From a virus (lineage: Duplodnaviria; Heunggongvirae; Uroviricota; Caudoviricetes): a DNA stretch of 64,000 bases. The notes beneath the pieces were generated by a model. The model was not told the DNA's origin. It was given only the letters and a program-made list of their open reading frames with translations, and did no database searches. Made by a program: the position numbers and the translations under genes. This document shows, piece after piece, positions 3,553-64,000 of this stretch; position 1 is the first letter of the stretch, and each line of letters opens with the position of its first letter. The DNA lies in IMG/VR virus record IMGVR_UViG_2690316068_000002; one strand, written 5' to 3'.

Positions 3553-3972
3553 TTACAACTTCTTAGCGCCCTTAAGTAGTGCGCTACGTACAAATTGAGC
3601 CGCTTTTTTCAAAGTTTCTTCACTGGTTTCACAGACAATCGGATCTTTCCACTTACCTGACGCAGTGTTGAGAATATTGATTTGGTTGCTATCCAGACAA
3701 ACAGAGATATAAAGCACCGTGCCACCAGCCAGCATCAAATGCATAGGAAACAGAGGCTTTTTACTGTCTTCACTGAACTGAGACATGGCGATGTTAATGG
3801 CTTCACCTACTTGTGCGCCAACAAGCCCTTGCGCAATTTCGAATACGGTACGAATAGCCAGACGAGCCTCTCGATCGCTCATAAGCGACCGGGAATGTTC
3901 GTCCGCTACACGAATCAAAGCCTCTGTTGTTTTCCGATCCAGTTCATCTTCAAGTAACATTTCACTAAACAT
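3553..3972 (-). CDS. hypothetical protein
   Basis: 139 aa ORF in operon context. Confidence 0.5.
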   Translation of the reverse strand: MFSEMLLEDELDRKTTEALIRVADEHSRSLMSDREARLAIRTVFEIAQGLVGAQVGEAINIAMSQFSEDSKKPLFPMHLMLAGGTVLYISVCLDSNQINILNTASGKWKDPIVCETSEETLKKAAQFVRSALLKGAKKL

Positions 3973-4678: not shown

Positions 4679-5154
4679 TACGACCTTCTGTATACGATCT
4701 GCGAAAAGCCAGGCTCTTCCTCGCTGGCTCGTTGGGTATAAGCTGTTTCAACAGGCACAAAGCCTAAGTTACGCATCATGCTTGCCGGGAAGAATGCATC
4801 GGCGTTTGGTACATCAACGCCGATGTGGGAGAGCCAAATCTCTTCAACATGCGGCATGAATAGCGAGTAAATTTGTTCCCCGCCAATCACCCACACAGGC
4901 TCTGGTAATCGCAACACATCATCCACACCAGCAGGGTAGAATCCATTTGGTACAAAGCCATGAGAGCGCGTCAAAACGAGGTTATGACGCTCTGGAAGAG
5001 GGCGTTTGAGACTTTCCATCGTTTTACGCCCCATAACGACAGTGGCGTTTTTGGTGAGTCTCTTAAATAGCTTCAGATCGGTAGAACAACGCCAGGGCAG
5101 TTCGTTCGCTATGCCGATCTCATAGTTACGGCCAACAGCAGCGATCATCTTCAT
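4678..5154 (-). CDS. folA: dihydrofolate reductase
   Basis: N-terminus MIAAVGRNYEIGIANELPW resembles DHFR; GRKTMESL and VIGGEQIY motifs; 158 aa. Confidence 0.8.
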   Translation of the reverse strand: MKMIAAVGRNYEIGIANELPWRCSTDLKLFKRLTKNATVVMGRKTMESLKRPLPERHNLVLTRSHGFVPNGFYPAGVDDVLRLPEPVWVIGGEQIYSLFMPHVEEIWLSHIGVDVPNADAFFPASMMRNLGFVPVETAYTQRASEEEPGFSQIVYRRS

Positions 5155-6684: not shown

Positions 6685-6700
6685 ATAAGTAATTACTTAT
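6685..6700. promoter_or_regulatory. promoter-proximal palindrome ATAAGTAATTACTTAT (member of recurrent operator-like family)
   Basis: Perfect 16-bp palindrome 16 nt upstream of thyA start. Confidence 0.4.
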
Positions 6701-16075: not shown

Positions 16076-16095
16076 ATAGGTAAGTGAATACCTAT
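16076..16095. promoter_or_regulatory. promoter-proximal palindrome ATAGGTAAGTGAATACCTAT
   Basis: Member of recurrent palindrome family; ~115 nt upstream of sbcD start. Confidence 0.4.
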
Positions 16096-20919: not shown

Positions 20920-20974
20920 GTGTTTTTCCTTTTGTGGTTAGTGTTTACTTATTTTGTTAGTTATGAATAGGCGA

Positions 20975-22526: not shown

Positions 22527-22590
22527 GTGTTTTCCTATGTGGTTGTTATGCGAAAATAATAAGTAAGTGCTTATATATTTTCAAGAGATA

Positions 22591-25994: not shown

Positions 25995-26111
25995 GTGTTT
26001 CTCCTTGTTGTGATTTGGCCGATGGCGCTATGCGCGTTGGGCTTTCGTTCATTCGTGGCTCTTTCGAGCTGTTAAATGATAGATCAGTACTTACTTATTA
26101 TCTATCAAAAA

Positions 26112-31400: not shown

Positions 31401-32013
31401 GCTCTATTTTCAGTGCGCTGGCTACTTTCATCGCTCGGACGTTAATCTGGTCGTAGAATGGGGTAGGGTGCGGATAAACCACGCTATAGAAGTTGTCTTT
31501 CCCGCCCGCTGTAATCAGTGAGCTTATGATTTTTGCAAAATCGTTGCGTTGGAACACGCTACCGATGTCGGAAGTGAGCAGGATGATGTTGCCTTTGGCA
31601 TATGTAGAAACCAACTGTTCGAGCGAGAGACGCGGTACAAAGTAGAACTGTTCTCGTGTGTTGGCCACCGTCATTAGTTCGCAGATGTCGCGATATCCTT
31701 GCTCATTTTTAATTAGAGCGGTAAACGAGTAGTTACGTCCCCGCTCTAATGATTCCATACATCTCATAGATTCTTTAGCAAGTTTAGCCCGGTGCTCGTA
31801 TGTGGGATCATCAACGATATTTAGTTTCACACCACAAATAACCGCCATGTCGTCACCAGCGGCACGTTGTAGTGGAATAACGCTCGCAATATTCATGCTA
31901 TCTGCTGAAATTACAGCGGTGTAGCCAGCTTCTCTGGCAATCTTCACCGCGTTTTCTGCTTTTAGAGCCGACTCCCCAAGTGAGAAGTCAGTTCGAACCA
32001 TCAGTGCCTTCAT
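28495..32013 (-). CDS. dnaE: DNA polymerase III alpha-like replicative polymerase (DnaE family)
   Basis: 1172 aa; block GYFLMVRDLMNHSRETGIPVGPGRGSSAGSLVAWCIGITNVDPIRHGLLFERFINPER matches the DnaE palm-domain signature; N-terminal PHP-like region. Confidence 0.85.
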   Translation of the reverse strand: MKALMVRTDFSLGESALKAENAVKIAREAGYTAVISADSMNIASVIPLQRAAGDDMAVICGVKLNIVDDPTYEHRAKLAKESMRCMESLERGRNYSFTALIKNEQGYRDICELMTVANTREQFYFVPRLSLEQLVSTYAKGNIILLTSDIGSVFQRNDFAKIISSLITAGGKDNFYSVVYPHPTPFYDQINVRAMKVASALKIEPVAFYPAYYESIDDADIKDIAHMVTNNIKIDQPHRLRIPHQRDNAINGRRHLLEALKAFSVRMDVPVTAAMASTTQDSIIDACTWRWHELPPALPKMADDEPATLMKLAVAGLRKRLTTKEFGYTPPASENRVYVERLKYEMNTLTRLGFCGYFLMVRDLMNHSRETGIPVGPGRGSSAGSLVAWCIGITNVDPIRHGLLFERFINPERLDLPDADLDFSQARRHEVIEYLNERYGEDYVAGIPNFTYLGAASALRDTARIYGVESADMAVSKELKNVEDDSLPLEELREQLASLDKYATKYPDAFNAACKLQSLMRGFGRHAAGMIVAGVPLTERTPVERRGDARCIAFDKRYCEAMGLIKLDVLGLATLDLLDSAKRYIKENTGEDINLDAISLEDRKVLDGFAAGYTQGVFQLESGPMRKLLKDLGGGIEPMSFKTVVATTALFRPGPIQSGMLDDYVSVAKGFMTPESLHPVLDELTAETNGVILYQEQTMNATRLLAGFTMAEADGVRSAIGKKNMEKMKSMGEKFIVQAQAGWIDVELEDGTTQRIHRAEHFKCEDGTLKTVEEALEHGAKLPINAVRVTASHPGLSEMKAKEIWTAFEKNGAYQFNKSHSVAYSLISYQSMWLKTHYPAEFFAAALTILGEDKHQGLVKDALTYGIRVLPPDVNVSSNRIEIRTLEDGSQVLYAPFSAVKGCSENGCQAIMRAREKVGGKFESLAQFEEAVEKRACNSRVRESLQKVGAFASIEPGSLPATDPERLRDQAELMGNLVIDAVKASRPFEMNPKRSAEINVLMTRMAAEMGLGDELIRPNIGIKPKIMIILDNANGNDARTGYFMENGYDDFKAKLLTAGDLRMGDLYVTGVCKKVKDKEKDYTKDEIGQFTDFMREEINLVRPTYILTCGSRSTALFNNKSKPSDLIGRKEYFPELDATVFYGFNPNILYFRPEEGERLEAILADIAETINK

Positions 32014-33429: not shown

Positions 33430-33524
33430 GCGTTTTTCCTTTGTTTTCTAATGAGCGTTCAACTTCTTATATAAATATATCATTATCTATCGTAAGTGGT
33501 TACTTATCATTAAGGCTGTTTTAT

Positions 33525-37680: not shown

Positions 37681-37778
37681 ATGACAATCACCGAGTTACG
37701 CCGATGCACTGTATAAGTAAACAGTATATTAGGCATAGATTCTTATAGGATCAAGAGTAAAAGTAACTCATTTTCAGC

Positions 37779-37811
37779 AATGATTCCATACATAGTAGGT
37801 ATGGAATCATT
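37779..37811. other. candidate recombination site: perfect 13-7-13 inverted repeat
   Basis: AATGATTCCATAC-atagtag-GTATGGAATCATT, ~100 bp upstream of the recombinase gene; architecture like loxP/dif/FRT. Confidence 0.55.
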
Positions 37812-37892
37812 TAGACGTCGTTTTTTAAATTTTAAGGTAAACAGGAGTGAGTTTGGTGGGGAATAAAAAACGGCTCCTGTGAGCCGTTAAAA

Positions 37893-38330: not shown

Positions 38331-38469
38331 TTAATGTGTTTGGTTACTAAGCAGAAATGGCTTTGTGAGGTTGACACATTAGAAACGGCAAGACAGCTTT
38401 AAACTAGCTGAAATGGTATGGTCGATTAGGTATCATTCAGTTTCAAAATTAACCAAAGACACTGATAAA

Positions 38470-39702
38470 ATGCCTGTTTTGTTAATCCTCATACTTGGGA
38501 CAGTGATGATTATTTTCTGGGATACCGTCAAGGAAAACGTAGAGGTCATAGGTACACTTGCCACTTCACTTGCATTTTTCGCCACAGCATGGGCCGCTTA
38601 CGAGGCAAGGCATAGTGCAAAGGCAGCAATGAGGGCCACTAGGCTGACGGCAGCTTCACTCCTTGAAATGAAAAAAGCCTCTTTTAAGGAATGGTACGGC
38701 ATATTACTTGAACAGCATAATAGATTACTTGAGGATGTTAACAAGACCTTGCAGGATGATAGGGAACTTAATGCAAAACTGGGAACGAATCTCATCAAGG
38801 CTATTTATTACCATGTAACCAAAAACTCCGTTTACATTAAATATATTAACCACATAGTTTTAATTCTTGATTATTTAGATAAAGACTTCTATTCGCCGTC
38901 ATCAGCCGATTATGAAAAGAGAGCTTACATAGAACAGCTGCGCAACAGCATTAGTCCTAATGTAAGCCTGCTGATAGCTACATTCGGCCTTAATATTGAC
39001 ACTAATAAAACCTATGACGCAAAGAGGCTTTACAGCCTGCTAAGCAAGTATAACTTCTTCGAAGGCCAACTTTTTTTTGAAGAAGCAATATCGAAAGTTC
39101 ATTATTTGGACTCTTATGCTGCTGTGATATTTGATAACGAATACCGAAAAGATGTAGAGTTTTATGTTGAAGAAATGGTTCGAGGTCGTGAGACCCCTAA
39201 AATCGATTCAAGATATCGTCATTTAAGGGCTACGTTCGCAATTCTGTGGTCTTACAACAACCCCTGCCGACAACATTTGCTTCAAAGATTTAATGACCTA
39301 CCTATGCATATGCGAAACAGCATTGAGCTGAGGATGGAAAATGCAGCCGATAAAGTAGCTGAGTTCAACTCTTTGTTACTTGGTTTTATAGGCTGGGAGC
39401 TTAGAATCGCAGGTAATAAAGTGAGGGTGATCAAGGATGAAAAACATTTAAAGAGGCTAATAAAACTCAACGATAAGTATCCAATTCCCCCCCGAGAGAA
39501 AGGTATTCTGTTAACCAATGGTTTCACCAATAGATTCGCTGATGAGATTAAAAATAGTCTGTCTATGTATAAGTTAGAAAATGCCTATTTAGCACTCAAC
39601 TCTAATCAACACAAAGAAAAGGTGATTGATGAAATTGTTGTTGAAGTTGAGAAAATTGTCGATAAATTTAAAGCAGAACTTGATTCTTTGGATTTCAACT
39701 AA
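38470..39702 (+). CDS. low-GC membrane-anchored protein of unknown function
   Basis: ORF 38413..39702; two N-terminal TM helices; K/N/I/Y-rich composition unlike neighbours; plus strand; followed by terminator. Confidence 0.55.
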   Translation: MPVLLILILGTVMIIFWDTVKENVEVIGTLATSLAFFATAWAAYEARHSAKAAMRATRLTAASLLEMKKASFKEWYGILLEQHNRLLEDVNKTLQDDRELNAKLGTNLIKAIYYHVTKNSVYIKYINHIVLILDYLDKDFYSPSSADYEKRAYIEQLRNSISPNVSLLIATFGLNIDTNKTYDAKRLYSLLSKYNFFEGQLFFEEAISKVHYLDSYAAVIFDNEYRKDVEFYVEEMVRGRETPKIDSRYRHLRATFAILWSYNNPCRQHLLQRFNDLPMHMRNSIELRMENAADKVAEFNSLLLGFIGWELRIAGNKVRVIKDEKHLKRLIKLNDKYPIPPREKGILLTNGFTNRFADEIKNSLSMYKLENAYLALNSNQHKEKVIDEIVVEVEKIVDKFKAELDSLDFN

Positions 39703-39707
39703 GCAAA

Positions 39708-39737
39708 AAGGGGCCGAAGCCCCTTTAATTATTTGCG
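39708..39737 (+). terminator. rho-independent terminator
   Basis: AAAGGGGC-cgaa-GCCCCTTT followed by AATTATTT. Confidence 0.6.
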
Positions 39738-39881
39738 CTGAAAAAAGTGTTGCTAGGATGTTAGCAAGCTATGGTTAAGAACGTCTGCCGCAATTGTCTA
39801 TCACAGCGTTGAGCGGTCTGGTTTATGTTAGCGGAGTCTTAATCTGGGTGATTAAAAGGCCAAACCGCTCAACGCTGTGTC

Positions 39882-39968
39882 TGGCGGAGAGTAATGGAAT
39901 CGAACCATCATCGCTTGCGCAATGGGACGGTTTTCAAGACCGCTTGAGCACCATGCTCCCTACTCTCC
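39882..39968 (-). tRNA. tRNA-Ser (anticodon UGA), type II with long variable arm
   Basis: Minus-strand GGAGAGT...CTTGAAA...GGTTCGATTCC...ACTCTCCGCCA; 7-bp acceptor stem, T-loop TTCGATT, anticodon loop CUUGAAA; D-arm atypical. Confidence 0.6.
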
Positions 39969-40181
39969 AGTTGTTGTGGTGCCGGGGGCTTCCCGGTGTC
40001 CTTTGGCTGGTTATCCACCGTGGACGGAGCCAATAGTCATCACAAAGGATCAATATAACCATTTCCCCGCGTGCGCTTAGCCGCATTCACCACAACGAAA
40101 AGAGCACTGTATGACGTTTGCACGGACTTACGCTTAAAACAGGGCAGTCTCGGCGGTTCTCAATGCTCTTTCCTGTTGTGT

Positions 40182-40257
40182 TGGTGCCGGTTAACGGATT
40201 CGAACCGCCGACCATTCGCTTACAAGGCGACTGCTCTACCAACTGAGCTAAACCGGC
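40182..40257 (-). tRNA. tRNA-Thr (anticodon UGU)
   Basis: GCCGGTTTAGCTCAGTTGGTAGAGCAGTCGCCTTGTAAGCGAATGGTCGGCGGTTCGAATCCGTTAACCGGCACCA; perfect acceptor stem; canonical D and T loops. Confidence 0.8.
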
Positions 40258-40261
40258 AATT

Positions 40262-40348
40262 TGGTGGGGAGTGATGGAGTCGAACCACCCGAGTCGCAAT
40301 GACAGTAGATTTACAGTCTACACCGCTACCTCTACGGACTAACTCCCC
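40262..40348 (-). tRNA. tRNA-Tyr (anticodon GUA), long variable arm
   Basis: GGGGAGT...GTAGACTGTAAATCTAC...GGTTCGACTCC...ACTCCCCACCA; anticodon loop CUGUAAA. Confidence 0.7.
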
Positions 40349-40353
40349 TAAAT

Positions 40354-40428
40354 TGGCGATGGTGGGTGGATTCGAACCACCGACCAGTTGGTTAACAGCC
40401 AACTGCTCTACCGCTGAGCTACACCATC
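40354..40428 (-). tRNA. tRNA-Asn (anticodon GUU)
   Basis: GATGGTGTAGCTCAGCGGTAGAGCAGTTGGCTGTTAACCAACTGGTCGGTGGTTCGAATCCACCCACCATCGCCA; perfect 7-bp acceptor stem. Confidence 0.8.
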
Positions 40429-41206
40429 AATTCGGCACTGCCAGTATTTATTACTCAACAGTGCCAATCGCGACGGTTTAGTTTCTGCCAGGAAACGCAC
40501 CGCTACTTGCACTTTTCGTTAGTGCCAGACGCTTTCGACTTCGCTCAATAGTAGAAGGCAAAATCTTTAAGTAGATGATGTTTCTGAGGACAGCACCTAC
40601 TTTGTAATTTATACAATGTGATGTATGGAATCATTTGTTGTGAAAACAGGCACCAATGGCAACAGTGGTTAAACCTACACAACAATCCTGTCTTCACAAC
40701 GTTGAGGCCACTACTCCGATTGAATGTTTGCCCAACATGTTACATATCAACGCTCGCCGGTATCTCTGTGAATAGAACCTTAGAATTGATAAAAATGTAA
40801 TGGCCTCAACGTTGTGTGCTGGCTAACCATACCAGCCGGGCTACGTCGCCGCTTTTTAACCCAGTATAAACGACATAATTGAACAAAATGACGTAACAGG
40901 ATGGGCGGTCAGTGGCTAAGAATCCGGGAGTCATATGGAGTTGAAAATATACCAACCGCCCATTCTGTTACTTCATCGGAGGGAACATGAATGTTCCCTC
41001 CTGCGTTCTGCAATCACACTCGCTCAGTGTGTCCCATTTCGGTAACGAGGCTGGAAACTGACCTCGCTGGTGTTTGGCTTATTAGGCTACTGCCAGATAG
41101 ACTTCTTCGTTTGCACTTGTATTTAAGTTCAAACAGTCGCGTCTCAACGAAAACAAAGTCATCTTATACATAAAAGATAAGTAAGTAAATACTTATTATT
41201 GTATTT

Positions 41207-41497: not shown

Positions 41498-41646
41498 TTT
41501 CTAACCTTTGTTTCATGAACTACCCGATACACACGCTTTCCGATGCACAGTGTTTTGGTTTTAAGTTCCTGCTTAATTAAATCACGACAGATGCCGAAGC
41601 CGATAAGGAAGCCACTCATAAAAGCTAATGAGATGTATGGAATCAT
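41494..41646 (-). CDS. small membrane protein (50 aa)
   Basis: Below ORF cutoff, found manually: MIPYISLAFMSGFLIGFGICRDLIKQELK...; AGGAG RBS; ATGA overlap with downstream gene. Confidence 0.35.
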   Translation of the reverse strand: MIPYISLAFMSGFLIGFGICRDLIKQELKTKTLCIGKRVYRVVHETKVRK

Positions 41647-41858
41647 TTTAACACTCCTGATTCTACTAATTGCTGTAGCAATACTTTCCCTTTATCAGTT
41701 AACTGGTAGTTGGCCGAACACTTCGTTTCAGAAACGTTTGCAACCAACCCTAACCGCTCTAACTTAGCCCGCGTTTTAGGCTTCCAGTACTCAGGGAACT
41801 CTGACCACTTACTGATTTCATGAAGCGTTTCCTTCTCCCGCTTACTTAATACGATCAT
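41643..41858 (-). CDS. hypothetical protein
   Basis: 71 aa ORF. Confidence 0.4.
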   Translation of the reverse strand: MIVLSKREKETLHEISKWSEFPEYWKPKTRAKLERLGLVANVSETKCSANYQLTDKGKVLLQQLVESGVLK

Positions 41859-48128: not shown

Positions 48129-48234
48129 CTGGTAGGTAGTTACTTACTTATCACAATGAGCGGATGATAGCGACTGGTGGCAGTTTTTGGAAGTGGAAAC
48201 GGAAGGGACTTGTTCTGGTGGGTGTCTTTAAAAG

Positions 48235-52720: not shown

Positions 52721-52910
52721 GAAAAGTCAAATCGGGATGGCGGATTTATATCACACTTCTCCTTTCAATTATAGGTATATACTTACCTACCTATGCATAT
52801 ACCGTTTAACGGCTGTTCAAATTCGTATCTAGTAACTCACTAATATATCCCTATGATTGCGGCTGTGAGATCGCATTTTAAACCTCACAGCCATATAAAT
52901 AATGTCTAAA

Positions 52911-56983: not shown

Positions 56984-57002
56984 TAGGTAAATACTTACCT
57001 AT
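56984..57002. promoter_or_regulatory. promoter-proximal palindrome TAGGTAA-atac-TTACCTA
   Basis: Perfect inverted repeat between J-like and side tail fiber genes. Confidence 0.4.
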
Positions 57003-63847: not shown

Positions 63848-64000
63848 TGTTTCATCCTTGAAATAAGTAGGCGCTAACATCCTGTCAGCGCCACAATGAT
63901 AGTAAATTAGTACTTACTTATCCAGATACTTAAGCCTCAAATACTTGTCTGAATGTAGCAGTTAAGACACAGTACCCCTGATATCGCTTGACCGTATGAC

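Follow-up and report, generated by a model that had tools for sequence, protein, structure and literature searches.

A widespread structured phage RNA with a tmRNA-like tag template in a putative untranslated RNA operon of an SSU5-like phage-plasmid

Ribosome rescue by tmRNA is near-universal in bacteria and constitutes a drug target; some phages, such as lambda-P22 hybrids and Mu, depend on it, and mycobacteriophages encode tmRNAs. Phage tRNA clusters can also contain other stable RNAs, as occurs with RNA C and RNA D of T4, two small structured RNAs whose function is unknown and which are transcribed and processed together with the phage tRNAs. In phage P1, the Pban operon comprises the C1 operator and Pban, a dicF-like region, tRNA-Asn, tRNA-Thr, tciABC, tRNA-Ile and ban. 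Two-piece (permuted) tmRNAs exist, some of them phage-borne, tmRNAs are encoded by phages such as Methylophilales phage Melnitz, and a published count found them in 133 isolate phage genomes (PMC9004378). Likewise, a family of prophage sRNAs, STnc100/PasD, has been described (bioRxiv 10.64898/2026.05.13.724894). Our literature searches retrieved no phage tmRNA-like RNA lacking the tRNA domain, and no phage RNA that targets or re-templates tmRNA rescue.

The DNA analysed here is a stretch of 64,000 nt (the window) from an SSU5-like phage-plasmid. Its nearest relatives are SSU5-like phage-plasmids, all of which keep a gap of ~750 bp between tRNA-Asn and the next gene. In the window, the ORF-poor ~780 bp adjacent to tRNA-Asn (40429–41206) are the 5′ part of an untranslated RNA operon of the minus strand, and their main content is a conserved structured RNA that we designate element A. 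Judging from its layout, the segment from 41195 to 39707 reads as a single untranslated RNA operon, in which an operator-like palindrome over a promoter is followed, 5′ to 3′, by element A, several conserved hairpins, the tRNAs for Asn, Tyr and Thr, a junction hairpin, an STnc100/PasD-like sRNA that takes up most of the Ser/Thr gap, tRNA-Ser, a further hairpin and a terminator. Its components are as follows:

41182–41195, no strand assigned: operator-like palindrome TAAGTAnnTACTTA, overlapping the promoter -35
41161–41189, minus strand: predicted sigma-70 promoter (-35 TTTACT, 41189–41184; 17-nt spacer; -10 TAAGAT, 41166–41161)
40988–41154, minus strand: element A, structured RNA of ~170 nt with a tmRNA-like template region and without a tRNA-like domain (covariance model R1)
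40888–40976, minus strand: long hairpin with 22-bp arms (40888–40909/40955–40976)
40695–40816, minus strand: long hairpin with 20-bp arms (40695–40714/40797–40816; CACAACGUUGAGGCC...) and a variable interior of ~80 nt
40620–40636, no strand assigned: candidate protein-binding site, half-copy of the 13-bp arm of the recombinase core site at 37778–37812
40434–40465, minus strand: 7-bp hairpin GGCACTG/CAGTGCC, directly 5′ of tRNA-Asn
40354–40428, minus strand: tRNA-Asn (ARAGORN/Rfam)
40262–40348, minus strand: tRNA-Tyr (ARAGORN/Rfam)
40182–40257, minus strand: tRNA-Thr (ARAGORN/Rfam)
40097–40173, minus strand: junction hairpin, an inverted repeat of Y (GGAAAGAGCAUUG, 40173–40161) and X (CAGUGCUCUUUUC, 40109–40097)
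39969–40114, minus strand: STnc100/PasD-like sRNA homologue (RF02076), including the CCGGGAAGCCCCCGG hairpin
39882–39968, minus strand: tRNA-Ser (ARAGORN/Rfam)
39802–39879, minus strand: hairpin with 20-bp arms (39802–39821/39860–39879), directly 3′ of tRNA-Ser
39707–39726, no strand assigned: GC-rich hairpin with U-tracts on each strand, which probably terminates transcription from both sides, that of the RNA operon and that of the convergent gene 38413–39702

An earlier note on this DNA had described the ~780 bp as lacking any ORF of 60 aa or more, which is slightly wrong: two plus-strand ORFs of exactly 60 aa occur at 40618–40800 and 40991–41173, both of them antisense to the conserved RNA and, in relatives, crossed by indels. 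The 213-bp gap that it reported between tRNA-Ser and tRNA-Thr (39969–40181) agrees with the positions of the four minus-strand tRNAs and holds the junction hairpin and the STnc100/PasD-like sRNA; nor did ARAGORN, lowered to 80% thresholds, call any further cloverleaf in it, in line with the same note. Its suggestion of degenerate tRNAs did not hold in the window, where ARAGORN at thresholds of 80% or higher and RF00005 (E up to 10) found only the four tRNAs, and ARAGORN at 70% returned noise. In some other phages, the hairpin behind the homologous element A contains a T-arm, and in the N4-like phage Bp4 ARAGORN makes an odd call of ‘tRNA-Cys(aca)’; the tRNA-remnant idea therefore has some basis in the wider family. 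Its other reading, a small RNA or processing signals, is borne out, with the gap harboring an STnc100/PasD homologue and the 780 bp a covarying RNA with a tmRNA-like tag template plus hairpins. Overall, its observations were partly confirmed, most features lying at or within a few bases of where it had placed them, and its interpretation was partly supported.

Transcription of the operon would start at the promoter overlapped by the operator-like palindrome, so that the operon would be switched on upon derepression of the phage-plasmid. This palindrome had been assigned to a repeated family and does belong to one: TAAGTAnnTACTTA has 14 strand matches at 11 sites of the window, versus 0.44 expected, and TAAGTATTTAC occupies the same position in nearly all SSU5-like relatives, with TAGGTATTTAC in the two most divergent. 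The predicted transcription start (~41154) is the G of a conserved GUUUUCG. The promoter geometry recurs in relatives (TTTACT-17-TATGAT in Klebsiella pJN2-26, TTTACC-17-TATAGT in locus L018 and TTGACA-17-TATAGT in Mijalis), in all three of which GTTTTCG starts 7–8 nt past the -10; a simple consensus promoter scan of the window did not list the proposed promoter at 41161–41189. The recombinase-site half-copy pointed out previously is also real, since its motif GATGTATGGAATCATTT (40620–40636) occurs five times in the window versus 0.28 expected, with the inverted pair at 37778–37812 adjoining the integrase. Within it, AUGAUUCC.UACA is kept in 24/24 aligned relatives (with G at the dot in one) amid variable surrounding sequence, and the full AUGAUUCCAUACAUC in 21 of the 24.

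Covariance model R1 matches positions 40988–41157 of the minus strand with 126.7 bits (E 6e-28); the transcript ends of element A are predictions. The earlier note had not included this tmRNA-like element (41154–40988), nor the inverted repeats at 40888–40909/40955–40976, 40695–40714/40797–40816 and 40978–41001. Element A begins with a conserved 5′ arm; next, towards the 3′ end, come a hairpin that has as its 3′ strand the A-rich sequence directly before a GCA ‘resume’ codon, a 10-codon tag-like frame with its stop codons in a hairpin loop, two hairpins and a closing hairpin. These parts map as follows:

41134–41154, minus strand: 5′ arm GUUUUCGUUGAGACGCGACUG, antisense to E. coli ssrA
41079–41114, minus strand: tag-like frame GCA AAC GAA GAA GUC UAU CUG GCA GUA GCC UAA UAA (ANEEVYLAVA and two stops), with an A-rich ‘resume’ context upstream
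41067–41096, minus strand: hairpin CUGG...CCAG whose loop contains the two stop codons, comparable to helix 5 of tmRNA
within 41015–41066, minus strand: hairpin Ha, CGAGG (41066–41062)/CCUCG (41050–41046), with covariation
41056–41052 with 41036–41032, minus strand: pseudoknot PK-a, Ha loop UUCCA with UGGGA, with covariation
41031–41026 with 41020–41015, minus strand: hairpin Hb, CACACU/AGUGUG, eight stem types
40978–41001, minus strand: closing hairpin of a perfect 11 bp, GGAGGGAACAU/AUGUUCCCUCC, counterpart of the ‘Y-X’ junction hairpin in other phages

The alignment of relatives that the earlier note had proposed as a check for covariation revealed compensatory changes both in element A and in the later hairpins. 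In the stop-codon hairpin, the outer four pairs are invariant and the inner UAGC/GCYA pairs are partly kept. The first of the two downstream hairpins is an H-type pseudoknot: all but one of 86 distinct copies preserve Ha, with six stem types, and PK-a is paired in 85/85, with seven complementary 4-mer types and covariation in support of it in all groups. The second hairpin is likewise a pseudoknot in non-SSU5 copies, in which PK-b is supported by matched insertions on both strands (GCCCUGA/UCAGGGC, ACCCUGA/UCAGGGU, and UCCCCG/CGGGGA in P1); in the SSU5-type copy of the window it amounts to only ~3 bp. The closing hairpin shows compensatory variants in relatives (GGAUAGGGCAUG/CAUGCCCUAUUC and GGAGAGAGCAUG/UAUGCUCUCUCC). 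Over the whole element A alignment, 92.4% of the pair cells hold a standard pair, versus 31–43% with the partners slid; 13 pairs changed on both sides, and the covariation score of 0.198 compares with 0.083 or less for slid partners and was reached by none of 500 shuffles. Folding of the single sequence was not better than that of shuffles (z ~ -1.3), as expected because element A is pseudoknotted. MAFFT plus RNAalifold on the raw alignment under-predicted the structure, because the SSU5-type loop was misaligned by one column, and was replaced by a covariance-model alignment with explicit parsing. Two further pairings were considered and rejected. A closing helix of the upstream motif X with the downstream motif Y around element A does not agree with the compensatory changes in loci L040 and L067, which favor pairing of Y with the next X, and a pairing of GUUUUCG with codons 3–4 of the element's own tag is lost when the tag varies and has weak predicted energies.

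Thirteen tag variants match AN[DE]xx[YF]LAVA; other tags are ANDDVVLMAA and similar, and that of P1 is ANDDLMMVAA. Among 58 haplotypes, third codon positions vary synonymously, codon 6 is only Y or F, and codon 3 is D or E in 57 and S in one; likewise, the ANDDVVLMAA frames of three phages show five differences, all of them synonymous. The tag frame and its stop codon are intact in every copy seen.

Element A shares with tmRNA (SsrA; Rfam RF00023 and relatives) an A-rich, conserved ‘resume’ context ending in UAAAU/CAAGU-GCA, followed by a short, stop-ended tag of 10 codons that starts with ANDx/ANEx and has a small hydrophobic C-terminus (the E. coli tag is ANDENYALAA), position 6 being aromatic in the LAVA-type tags as well as in that of Erwinia phiEa2809. 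It also shares the stop codons in the loop of a helix-5-like hairpin, a helix directly upstream and the flanking pseudoknots downstream, PK-b being weak in the window. ARAGORN recognised the resume consensus and the tag, ANDNVFLAVA with two stops, in the Mijalis homologue, and the Rfam tmRNA models align exactly the resume/tag stretch of the window, the similarity being confined to the template region. Conversely, ARAGORN found no tmRNA in the window at default thresholds and nothing credible at thresholds of 80% or higher; at 70% the tag surfaces only amid many spurious calls. The Rfam scores in the window were also low (beta_tmRNA, 14.4–17.3 bits, gathering score 84; tmRNA_permuted, 14.8 bits, gathering score 47), and the best score of any homologue to a tmRNA model was 33.4 (Bp4), below gathering scores of at least 47.

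Unlike tmRNA, element A has ~170 nt instead of ~363, its tags end in LAVA, LMAA, KVAA or MVAA instead of ALAA, and it carries at the 5′ end an arm antisense to the template of the host tmRNA. Additionally, it lacks an acceptor stem, a T-arm and a D-loop analogue and, therefore, alone it could be neither charged nor enter the A site. No tRNA-like domain (acceptor stem joining the 5′ and 3′ ends, T-arm, CCA end) was found in its alignment-derived structure, so that canonical trans-translation from element A alone is impossible. The alanine identity pair G3-U70 is likewise absent: element A has no acceptor stem, the tRNA-like structure of Bp4 has U3-G70, and in the Y-X helices of other phages the G-U pair lies off position 3:70 and is G-C in some copies. 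As in two-piece and phage tmRNAs, the template is on an RNA separate from the acceptor function; however, their acceptor piece is detectable by ARAGORN, and none was found in the window, SSU5 or P1. A ‘permuted tmRNA’ call by ARAGORN in Mijalis borrows parts of genuine tRNAs.

Element A is a member of a widespread, hitherto unannotated family of structured phage RNAs. A core of 150 nt can be aligned across HK620, Mijalis, Carvaje, BUCT610 and the SSU5-like elements, and BLAST matched the window copy to 320 phage records and the P1 copy to 293; at least 120 stretches came from scanning viral contigs for the pattern. Model R1 recovered every searched locus among those from BLAST and the pattern scan, and also matched P1 (89.8 bits), Kuttervirus phage 38, a Taipeivirus, Erwinia phiEa2809 and the N4-like phages Bp4 and KP8. 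Homologues occur in model phages (P1, HK620, Felix O1-like and N4-like), in Vi1-like phages and in several siphoviruses. Compensatory changes accompany the conservation of element A across at least seven groups of phages that are unrelated to one another, some temperate and some virulent. Of 128 loci, 78 have tRNAs within 1.2 kb, every time on the tag-sense strand. Element A is present in ~5% of complete E. coli genomes, mainly in phage-plasmids; its exact core occurs in just 3 of 185,579 species reference genomes. No PGAP annotation underlies it in 258 E. coli genomes, it is unannotated in the GenBank records examined, where that of P1 marks only an upstream ‘dicF-like region’, and it matches no Rfam family at threshold, giving only weak matches to the tmRNA models.

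The closest arrangement is that of the P1 Pban operon, which has the same order of modules: a promoter controlled by a repressor (C1), element A (locus L008, 3618–3818), tRNA-Asn, tRNA-Thr and an STnc100-like element. It differs in having a DicF-like sRNA and a terminator before element A, in lacking tRNA-Tyr and tRNA-Ser, and in running on into protein-coding genes. A loose similarity of the plus strand of element A to DicF was examined and dismissed: there is no Rfam DicF match, context and G-U pairs mark the minus strand as the functional one, and the annotated dicF-like region of P1 is a different element, upstream of A. RNA C and RNA D of T4, likewise stable non-tRNA RNAs of a phage tRNA cluster, are likened here by description, not by sequence. 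T4-like phages are not named among the element A BLAST matches and organism tallies listed, which cover a minority of the records.

The hairpins after element A keep their pairing through compensatory and G-U changes in the sense of the tRNA strand. That at 40888–40976 is conserved in SSU5-like elements, with G-U variants in the minus sense. The hairpin at 40695–40816 is a paralogue of that behind tRNA-Ser, and shows the compensatory changes GAGGCC/GGCCUC, GAGACC/GGUCUC and GAGAUC/GAUCUC. The 7-bp hairpin of the earlier note, GGCACTG/CAGTGCC, is real (40434–40440 and 40459–40465) and exclusive to the E. coli-type relatives; the Klebsiella type has another sequence in its place, and the Salmonella SSU5 type lacks it. 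The note was also right about a hairpin behind tRNA-Ser, whose arms are 95% complementary and which is conserved together with this tRNA in Klebsiella pJN2-26. The Y-spacer-X unit of the junction hairpin, in turn, also follows element A in lambdoid and other phages.

The CCGGG...CCCGG stem noticed before in the Ser/Thr gap corresponds, in the minus strand, to CCGGGAAGCCCCCGG, which is the conserved 3′ hairpin of STnc100/PasD. The Rfam scan that had been suggested as a check aligned the gap sequence to the full length of RF02076 with 41.3 bits (E 7e-8 for a search of 301 nt), short of the gathering score (47), including the core UGGUGAAU...CACCGGGA-GC-CCCGGCACCA; the closing helix UGGUGA/CACCA and the 3′ hairpin CACCGGGA..CCCGG align at high posterior probability. 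Scores in P1 (33.4) and ST64B (35.1) are also below the gathering score, and the P1 element, likewise behind tRNA-Thr, shows 85% identity. The phage context agrees with the description of this prophage family, although the gap element differs in lying between tRNAs and not in a lambdoid late region. We treat it as a divergent homologue of STnc100/PasD and not as a curated member. No terminator is evident for it because tRNA-Ser follows directly. Identity with the Pas sRNAs was rejected, since these are ~84 nt long, have terminators and are almost all chromosomal.

The first 21–30 nt of element A are antisense to nt 71–110 of the host ssrA, a segment with its resume codon and first tag codons. 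The arm of the window is antisense to nt ~81–105 of E. coli ssrA (the UAGUC-GCA resume region and tag codons 1–5) and has a predicted duplex energy of -22.3 kcal/mol with nt 71–110, versus -9.9 with the homologous segment of element A itself, with a z of -4.7 versus 1000 shuffled arms and with nt 71–110 as the best 40-nt window of ssrA. All 14 arm variants gave -18 to -34 kcal/mol with ssrA nt 71–110, versus -5 to -17 with their own segment. Versus shuffled arms, z ran from -3.2 to -7.5, and nt 71–110 was the best window in 12 of 13 variants, which, owing to their common descent, do not count as 12 independent observations. When the target was ssrA in its full 363 nt, shuffled arms often came to similar energies (4 to 133 of 300), a marginal result only, and the significance of the arm therefore hinges on taking just the accessible template region as target. 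A global RNAduplex of whole element A with whole ssrA was discarded, as it produced meaningless full-length duplexes no better than shuffles. Copies from Ackermannviridae have GUUCUCG in place of GUUUUCG, which is one mismatch in the arm, and part of the complementarity of the arm, UUUGCGG/CCGCAAA, could be inherited from a PK1-like helix that element A has in common with tmRNA.

In our view, the most likely mechanism, which we advance as a proposal from comparative sequence analysis, is that element A acts on host trans-translation by means of its arm and its tag frame. The 5′ arm would base-pair with the single-stranded start of the host tmRNA template (the resume codon and the first tag codons), and the tag frame, which evolves like a translated sequence, would replace the host template or mark element A as a competitor or mimic. 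The hairpins and tRNAs would act as processing points that free element A and the sRNA. Taking these points jointly, we consider it more likely than not that the locus is a minus-strand RNA operon with a member of the widespread element A family, and that this RNA is controlled by derepression, processed and active on trans-translation. A more specific version is tentative, and we put its chances well below even: that element A, lacking a tRNA-like domain itself, docks by its arm on the single-stranded template start of the charged tmRNA of the host, over the resume codon and tag codons 1–5, either blocking tagging or presenting its own resume codon and tag, in which case rescued ribosomes would add the phage tag (...YLAVA, ...LMAA, etc.) in place of the ClpXP degron ...ALAA.

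Other explanations can be weighed against this action on trans-translation. Element A could be a cis-acting leader of the tRNA operon (a processing scaffold, a stabiliser or an anti-Rho antitermination element), its resemblance to a tag being irrelevant. It is always co-oriented with the neighbouring tRNAs and sits between junction hairpins, with the rest of the 780 bp forming a conserved chain of hairpins, and the junction X strand, (A)GUGCUCUUU, bears what we take to be a resemblance to the rrn boxA core UGCUCUUU. However, codon-like substitutions, a fixed frame and conserved stops are unexpected of a leader; besides, no tRNA lies within 1.2 kb in HK620, BUCT610 and ~40% of the loci, and element A of Mijalis has its own promoter inside the tRNA array. 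On balance we find a leader rather improbable. The coding-like substitutions, together with an in-frame TTG six codons upstream in the window-type copy, might instead suggest an ordinary small protein-coding gene. This is very unlikely, with 79 of 105 distinct copies lacking any in-frame ATG, GTG or TTG past the nearest upstream stop and no Shine-Dalgarno motif at any candidate start codon of the tag frame; an overlapping frame from an AUG/GUG/CUG before GCA (xUG-CAA-ACG) was also rejected, as it is not conserved and meets an early stop in P1 and Bp4. We assign an equally slim chance to the region being a DNA-level element, such as a replication origin or a packaging or recombination site: the conserved recombinase-arm half-site, the operator-like palindrome and the many inverted repeats speak for it, but these DNA sites are short and take up a small share of the region, pairing is kept via G-U pairs present on the tRNA-sense strand only, and the core is shared by phages whose modes of replication and packaging are unrelated.

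Two explanations take the likeness to tmRNA further. Element A might work with a nearby charged, tRNA-like acceptor piece as a split tmRNA, for phage-specified trans-translation without host tmRNA. Precedents for two-piece tmRNAs, some of them phage-borne, exist (PMC9004378), the Y-X hairpin behind element A carries GGGUUCGAAUCCC in several lambdoid-type loci, and the ‘tRNA-Cys(aca)’ of Bp4 abuts element A and has a T-arm that matches the tmRNA model. Nevertheless, the hairpin after element A has no T-arm in the window, SSU5 or P1, G3-U70 is absent from the candidates inspected and the G-U of the Y-X helix becomes G-C in some copies, the encoded ‘CCA’ is mostly CCG, and no pairing was found that would hold the two pieces together, so we consider a split tmRNA decidedly unlikely. 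Finally, element A could be a functionless, decaying fragment of the host ssrA. Imprecise excision has been reported to leave ssrA fragments in prophages (PMC9004378), and the resemblance of element A to tmRNA is limited to the template region. Covariation and wide conservation already contradict decay, with compensatory changes in at least seven phage groups that are unrelated and include temperate and virulent members; in addition, the exact core is nearly absent from the species reference genomes and no copy seen has a broken tag frame or stop. Phages with their integration site in ssrA carry the 3′ end of this gene and are not known to carry its tag region. We find decay scarcely credible.

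The operon illustrates that phage tRNA clusters also carry cassettes of non-tRNA RNAs, set apart by conserved junction hairpins. Even if element A worked by another mechanism, there would remain a new family of RNAs, well supported and provided with boundaries and a covariance model, and the annotation of ‘empty’ DNA can be corrected in hundreds of phage and plasmid records. Through the complementarity of its 5′ arm, this RNA may give many enterobacterial phages a means of interfering with ribosome rescue; if it is functional as proposed, whether the degradation tag is rewritten or silenced by infecting phages becomes a directly testable question. If true, tag swapping or anti-tmRNA action would be common to P1, SSU5-like, lambdoid, Felix O1-like, Vi1-like and N4-like phages, and would represent a new viral route to reprogram ribosome rescue and protein quality control.

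The window is an SSU5-like phage-plasmid. Around the finding, its sequence identity is 97–99% with Escherichia phages CMS-2020a and Cyrano, as with many ca. 110-kb E. coli plasmids, and ca. 79% with Salmonella phage SSU5, Klebsiella pJN2-26 and Yersinia pMT1-type plasmids. In annotated relatives (Cyrano, SSU5, pJN2-26), a stretch of ca. 750–780 bp lies between tRNA-Asn and the next gene and has no annotation, except for a 141-bp hypothetical ORF in pJN2-26. Our analyses confirmed four tRNAs and, from the earlier note, the 213-bp gap between tRNA-Ser and tRNA-Thr as well as its two hairpins, now placed at 40434–40465 and 39802–39879; likewise, no other intact cloverleaf was found with ARAGORN down to 80% of its thresholds. 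The claim that there is no ORF of 60 aa or more needs amending, as the opposite strand contains two mechanical ORFs of exactly 60 aa, both crossed by indels among relatives. All four tRNAs are on the minus strand, as are the ligase gene and several small genes to their right, and transcription therefore crosses the region from right to left. The features between element A, a structured RNA, and tRNA-Asn are seen in an alignment of 24 SSU5-like relatives.

Features of the RNA region, in the order of transcription
41154–40988, minus strand: element A, ca. 170 nt, with a tmRNA-like tag template
41001–40978, minus strand: closing hairpin, the first after A, with compensatory variants
40976–40888, minus strand: hairpin with 22-bp arms, next after the closing hairpin
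between the 22-bp-arm and 20-bp-arm hairpins: two short hairpins
40816–40695, minus strand: hairpin with 20-bp arms and compensatory variants GAGGCC/GGCCUC, GAGACC/GGUCUC and GAGAUC/GAUCUC
40636–40620, minus strand: conserved motif, AUGAUUCC.UACA in 24/24 relatives and AUGAUUCCAUACAUC in 21/24
between this motif and the next entry: further hairpins
40434–40465: small hairpin just before tRNA-Asn, only in E. coli-type relatives
40173–40097, minus strand: Y-X junction hairpin, opening the Ser/Thr gap
40114–39969, minus strand: STnc100/PasD-like element (41.3 bits, below the gathering score of 47; E 7e-8)
39802–39879: long hairpin after tRNA-Ser

Low-stringency BLAST comparisons revealed that positions ca. 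41012–41166 match unannotated DNA in more than 300 unrelated phages, in settings as diverse as the interval between pR'/qut and the late terminator (HK620), the interior of a tRNA array (the Felix O1-like phage Mijalis) and the vicinity of a tRNA-Ser (Carvaje). An alignment of seven copies showed a conserved core with compensatory changes, and a covariance model built from 30 diverse copies scored 126.7 bits on the window (40988–41157, minus strand) and recovered a copy in phage P1 (89.8 bits) that the pattern scan could not reach; Kuttervirus phage 38, Taipeivirus KWBSE43-6, Erwinia phage phiEa2809 and the N4-like phages Bp4 and KP8 were also missed by pattern and found by the model. Element A occurs in 258 of 5,426 complete E. 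coli genomes, at 256 places on plasmids and 14 on chromosomes, and none of the listed copies has an RNA annotated by PGAP; the sole PGAP feature under a match is a protein gene beside two partial matches. Among 185,579 species reference genomes, only three carry the exact core, and no Rfam 15 family reaches threshold on A.

Explicit parsing of 86 distinct copies showed that hairpin Ha is intact in 85, with six stem types, and that hairpin Hb has eight. In pseudoknot PK-a, four nucleotides of the Ha loop pair with the four directly before Hb in 85/85 copies, in seven complementary types (CCGA/UCGG, CCAG/CUGG, CCAA/UUGG, UUCC/GGGA, UUCC/GGAA, CUCC/GGAG and GUCG/CGAC). Pseudoknot PK-b, of only ca. 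3 bp in the SSU5-type copy of the window, shows matched insertions in both strands (GCCC/GGGC, GCCCUGA/UCAGGGC, ACCCUGA/UCAGGGU, GCCCAC/GUGGGC and UCCCCG/CGGGGA). In the model-based alignment, 92.4% of pair cells hold standard pairs, versus 31–43% after the partners are slid; both members have changed in 13 pairs, and the covariation score is 0.198 versus at most 0.083 for the slid versions, with none of 500 shuffles reaching the observed values. A CUGG/CCAG hairpin holds the stop codons in its loop, and the A-rich stretch before the GCA codon is the 3' strand of another hairpin that covaries between groups (CUUUG/CAAAG, UAUUUU/AAAAUA, UUAUUUUA/UAAAAUAA and GUUUUUA/UAAAGAC). Element A thus mirrors the template half of tmRNA, with an upstream helix, resume codon, tag, helix-5 analogue and pseudoknots.

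The tag frame of the window, on the minus strand, is GCA AAC GAA GAA GUC UAU CUG GCA GUA GCC UAA UAA, or ANEEVYLAVA, compared with ANDENYALAA in E. coli tmRNA (sequence confirmed). A pattern scan of viral contigs retrieved at least 120 stretches, with 13 tag variants matching AN[DE]x x[YF]LAVA; the tags of the copies recovered by the model are ANDDLMMVAA (P1), ANDNTFLAVA (phage 38), ANDNEFKVAA (phiEa2809) and ANDDVVLMAA (KWBSE43-6, Bp4 and KP8), the last three phages differing at five nucleotides, all synonymous. Among 58 haplotypes, third codon positions vary synonymously (GAC/GAU, GAA/GAG, CAG/CAA, GUC/GUU/GUG, ACG/ACA, UAU/UAC and UUU/UUC), codon 3 encodes D or E with a single exception, and codon 6 is restricted to Y or F. 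The tag frame therefore evolves like translated sequence. Independently, ARAGORN recognized both a tag and a tmRNA 'resume consensus' in the copy from Mijalis, and in the window the Rfam models for permuted and beta tmRNA align to precisely the segment that holds the resume and tag sequences.

A strong hairpin of 11–15 bp, formed by motifs Y (GGUAAGAGCAUUG) and X (CAGUGCUCUUUCC), always follows A, and compensatory changes in two phage loci (L040 and L067) indicate that the partner of Y is the next X downstream. A conserved junction (...CACAACAGGUAAGAGCAUUG, a spacer of 30–80 nt, CAGUGCUCUUUCC...) divides non-tRNA RNAs from tRNAs in many unrelated phages; it is seen in the flanks of A in HK620 and loci L006, L013, L025, L036, L040 and L067, and at 40097–40173 of the window. 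Its ends form a hairpin of 12–15 bp, with a T-arm in some spacers, and it looks like a cassette or punctuation system of phage RNA arrays. The X strand carries the boxA-like sequence UGCUCUUU. Separately, Mijalis has an orphan minihelix between tRNA-Asp and tRNA-Lys, ca. 590 nt upstream of the tag (CAGGGU-AUGAGA-GAAGGUUCGAUUCCUUC-ACCCUUCGCCA), consisting of a T-arm and a short acceptor-like stem with encoded CCA; from this minihelix ARAGORN drew the '3' tRNA domain' when it called a permuted tmRNA.

The hairpins at 39802–39879 and 40695–40816 have a common stem (CACARCGUUGAG...CUCAACGYUGUG) and are therefore paralogous, one after tRNA-Ser and one in the leader; both may be RNase III substrates. 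STnc100/PasD is a prophage sRNA family (bioRxiv 10.64898/2026.05.13.724894). The first 27 nt of the STnc100-like element (AGUGCUCUUUUCGUUGUGGUGAAUGCG) are found again ca. 100–150 nt downstream of A in siphoviruses and HK620 (2133–2174, 2355–2381 and 2530–2593 in the BUCT610 locus; 2375–2401 in that of HK620), so that both RNAs are linked in many phages even without intervening tRNAs. Other matches were to sRNA IsrK in the ST64B locus (4954–5030; 64.3 bits, above threshold) and, below threshold, to Ysr251, an antisense RNA of Yersinia, located opposite the PhoH-like gene in Klebsiella pJN2-26 (1095–1286 of its locus; 43 bits, gathering score 100).

Phage P1 has its parts in the same order as the window: the C1-controlled Pban promoter, a DicF-like sRNA and terminator, A, tRNA-Asn, tRNA-Thr and, likewise after tRNA-Thr, an STnc100-like element. 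The unannotated P1 copy of A (3618–3818 of locus L008, minus strand; NC_005856, ca. 68.88–69.08 kb) lies between the 'dicF-like region' terminator and tRNA-Asn, and the STnc100-like element is in the interval from tRNA-Thr to tciA, where it runs antisense to annotated upl promoters. In the window, the proposed promoter has an operator-like palindrome overlapping its −35, which suggests repressor control similar to that of P1. This palindrome, mentioned in the earlier note and placed by us at 41182–41195, indeed belongs to a dispersed 14-bp family (TAAGTAnnTACTTA) with 11 sites, against 0.44 matches expected; the others are at 6686–6699, 16081–16094, 20938–20951, 22560–22573, 26084–26097, 33493–33506, 48133–48146, 52772–52785, 56984–56997 and 63907–63920. 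The family has the appearance of operators for a master repressor, in the manner of the scattered C1 operators of P1. The recombinase-site half-copy was also borne out, as a 17-mer at 40620–40636 that is one of five copies: an inverted pair in a candidate tyrosine-recombinase core site adjoining the integrase gene (37778–37812; 13-bp inverted arms AATGATTCCATAC, 7-bp spacer), and single copies at 31747–31763, 40620–40636 and 41632–41648. The copy within the RNA leader is kept in 24/24 aligned relatives, and that at 41632 overlaps the start codon of a 50-aa ORF (MIPYI...).

A conventional micro-ORF would also evolve as translated sequence, and is unlikely: among 105 distinct copies, 79 lack any in-frame ATG, GTG or TTG in the interval from the closest preceding stop to the GCA codon, Shine-Dalgarno motifs are absent from all candidate starts, and an overlapping frame from an xUG just upstream of the tag is not conserved. 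The tag frame is not an ordinary gene. That the region is a DNA-level site is also unlikely; the recombinase-site arm and a palindrome do lie here, but G-U pairs of the leader hairpins occur on the tRNA-sense strand only, indicating a constraint on RNA and not on DNA. Complete tmRNAs encoded by phages are known (PMC9004378), and literature searches returned nothing on a template-only RNA resembling A. We do not classify A as a tmRNA because it has no tRNA-like domain and the following hairpin is plain in the window, SSU5 and P1; ARAGORN makes no tmRNA call in the window, and every Rfam tmRNA model scores far below threshold on A. A relic of the host ssrA, the tmRNA gene, is unlikely, given the conserved and covarying structure. 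A split tmRNA using a neighboring tRNA-like piece ranks third: in some phages the hairpin after A encloses a T-arm (GGGUUCGAAUCCC), and in Bp4 ARAGORN calls it as an odd tRNA-Cys(aca) abutting A. A cis-acting leader or processing element ranks second; nearby tRNAs are on the same strand as A in 78 loci and on the opposite strand in none.

The 5' arm of A begins with the near-invariant GUUUUCG. In promoter-driven copies this motif starts 7–8 nt past the −10 (TAAGAT in the window, TATGAT in pJN2-26, TATAGT in locus L018 and Mijalis), so that the RNA probably has its 5' end there. The arm, GUUUUCGU(C/U)...GCGAC...(UUUGCGG), is complementary and collinear to E. coli ssrA GACGAAAAC (tag codons 3–5), GUCGC (spanning the resume codon) and CCGCAAA (the 3' strand of PK1), with one mismatch in Ackermannviridae arms. 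The predicted duplex with ssrA nt 71–110 reaches −18 to −34 kcal/mol in 14/14 variants, and that with the homologous segment of A itself −5 to −17 kcal/mol. Compared with 1000 shuffled arms, the variants have z-scores of −3.2 to −7.5, and nt 71–110 is the best 40-nt ssrA window in 12/13 variants, which are related, so these tests are not independent; with whole ssrA as target, shuffled arms often reach similar energies at GC-rich sites. Transcription of the operon would depend on derepression, and the hairpins and tRNAs would serve as processing points. Element A would then act on trans-translation, and the reading that we rank first is antisense docking on the host tmRNA, whose template would be blocked or replaced.
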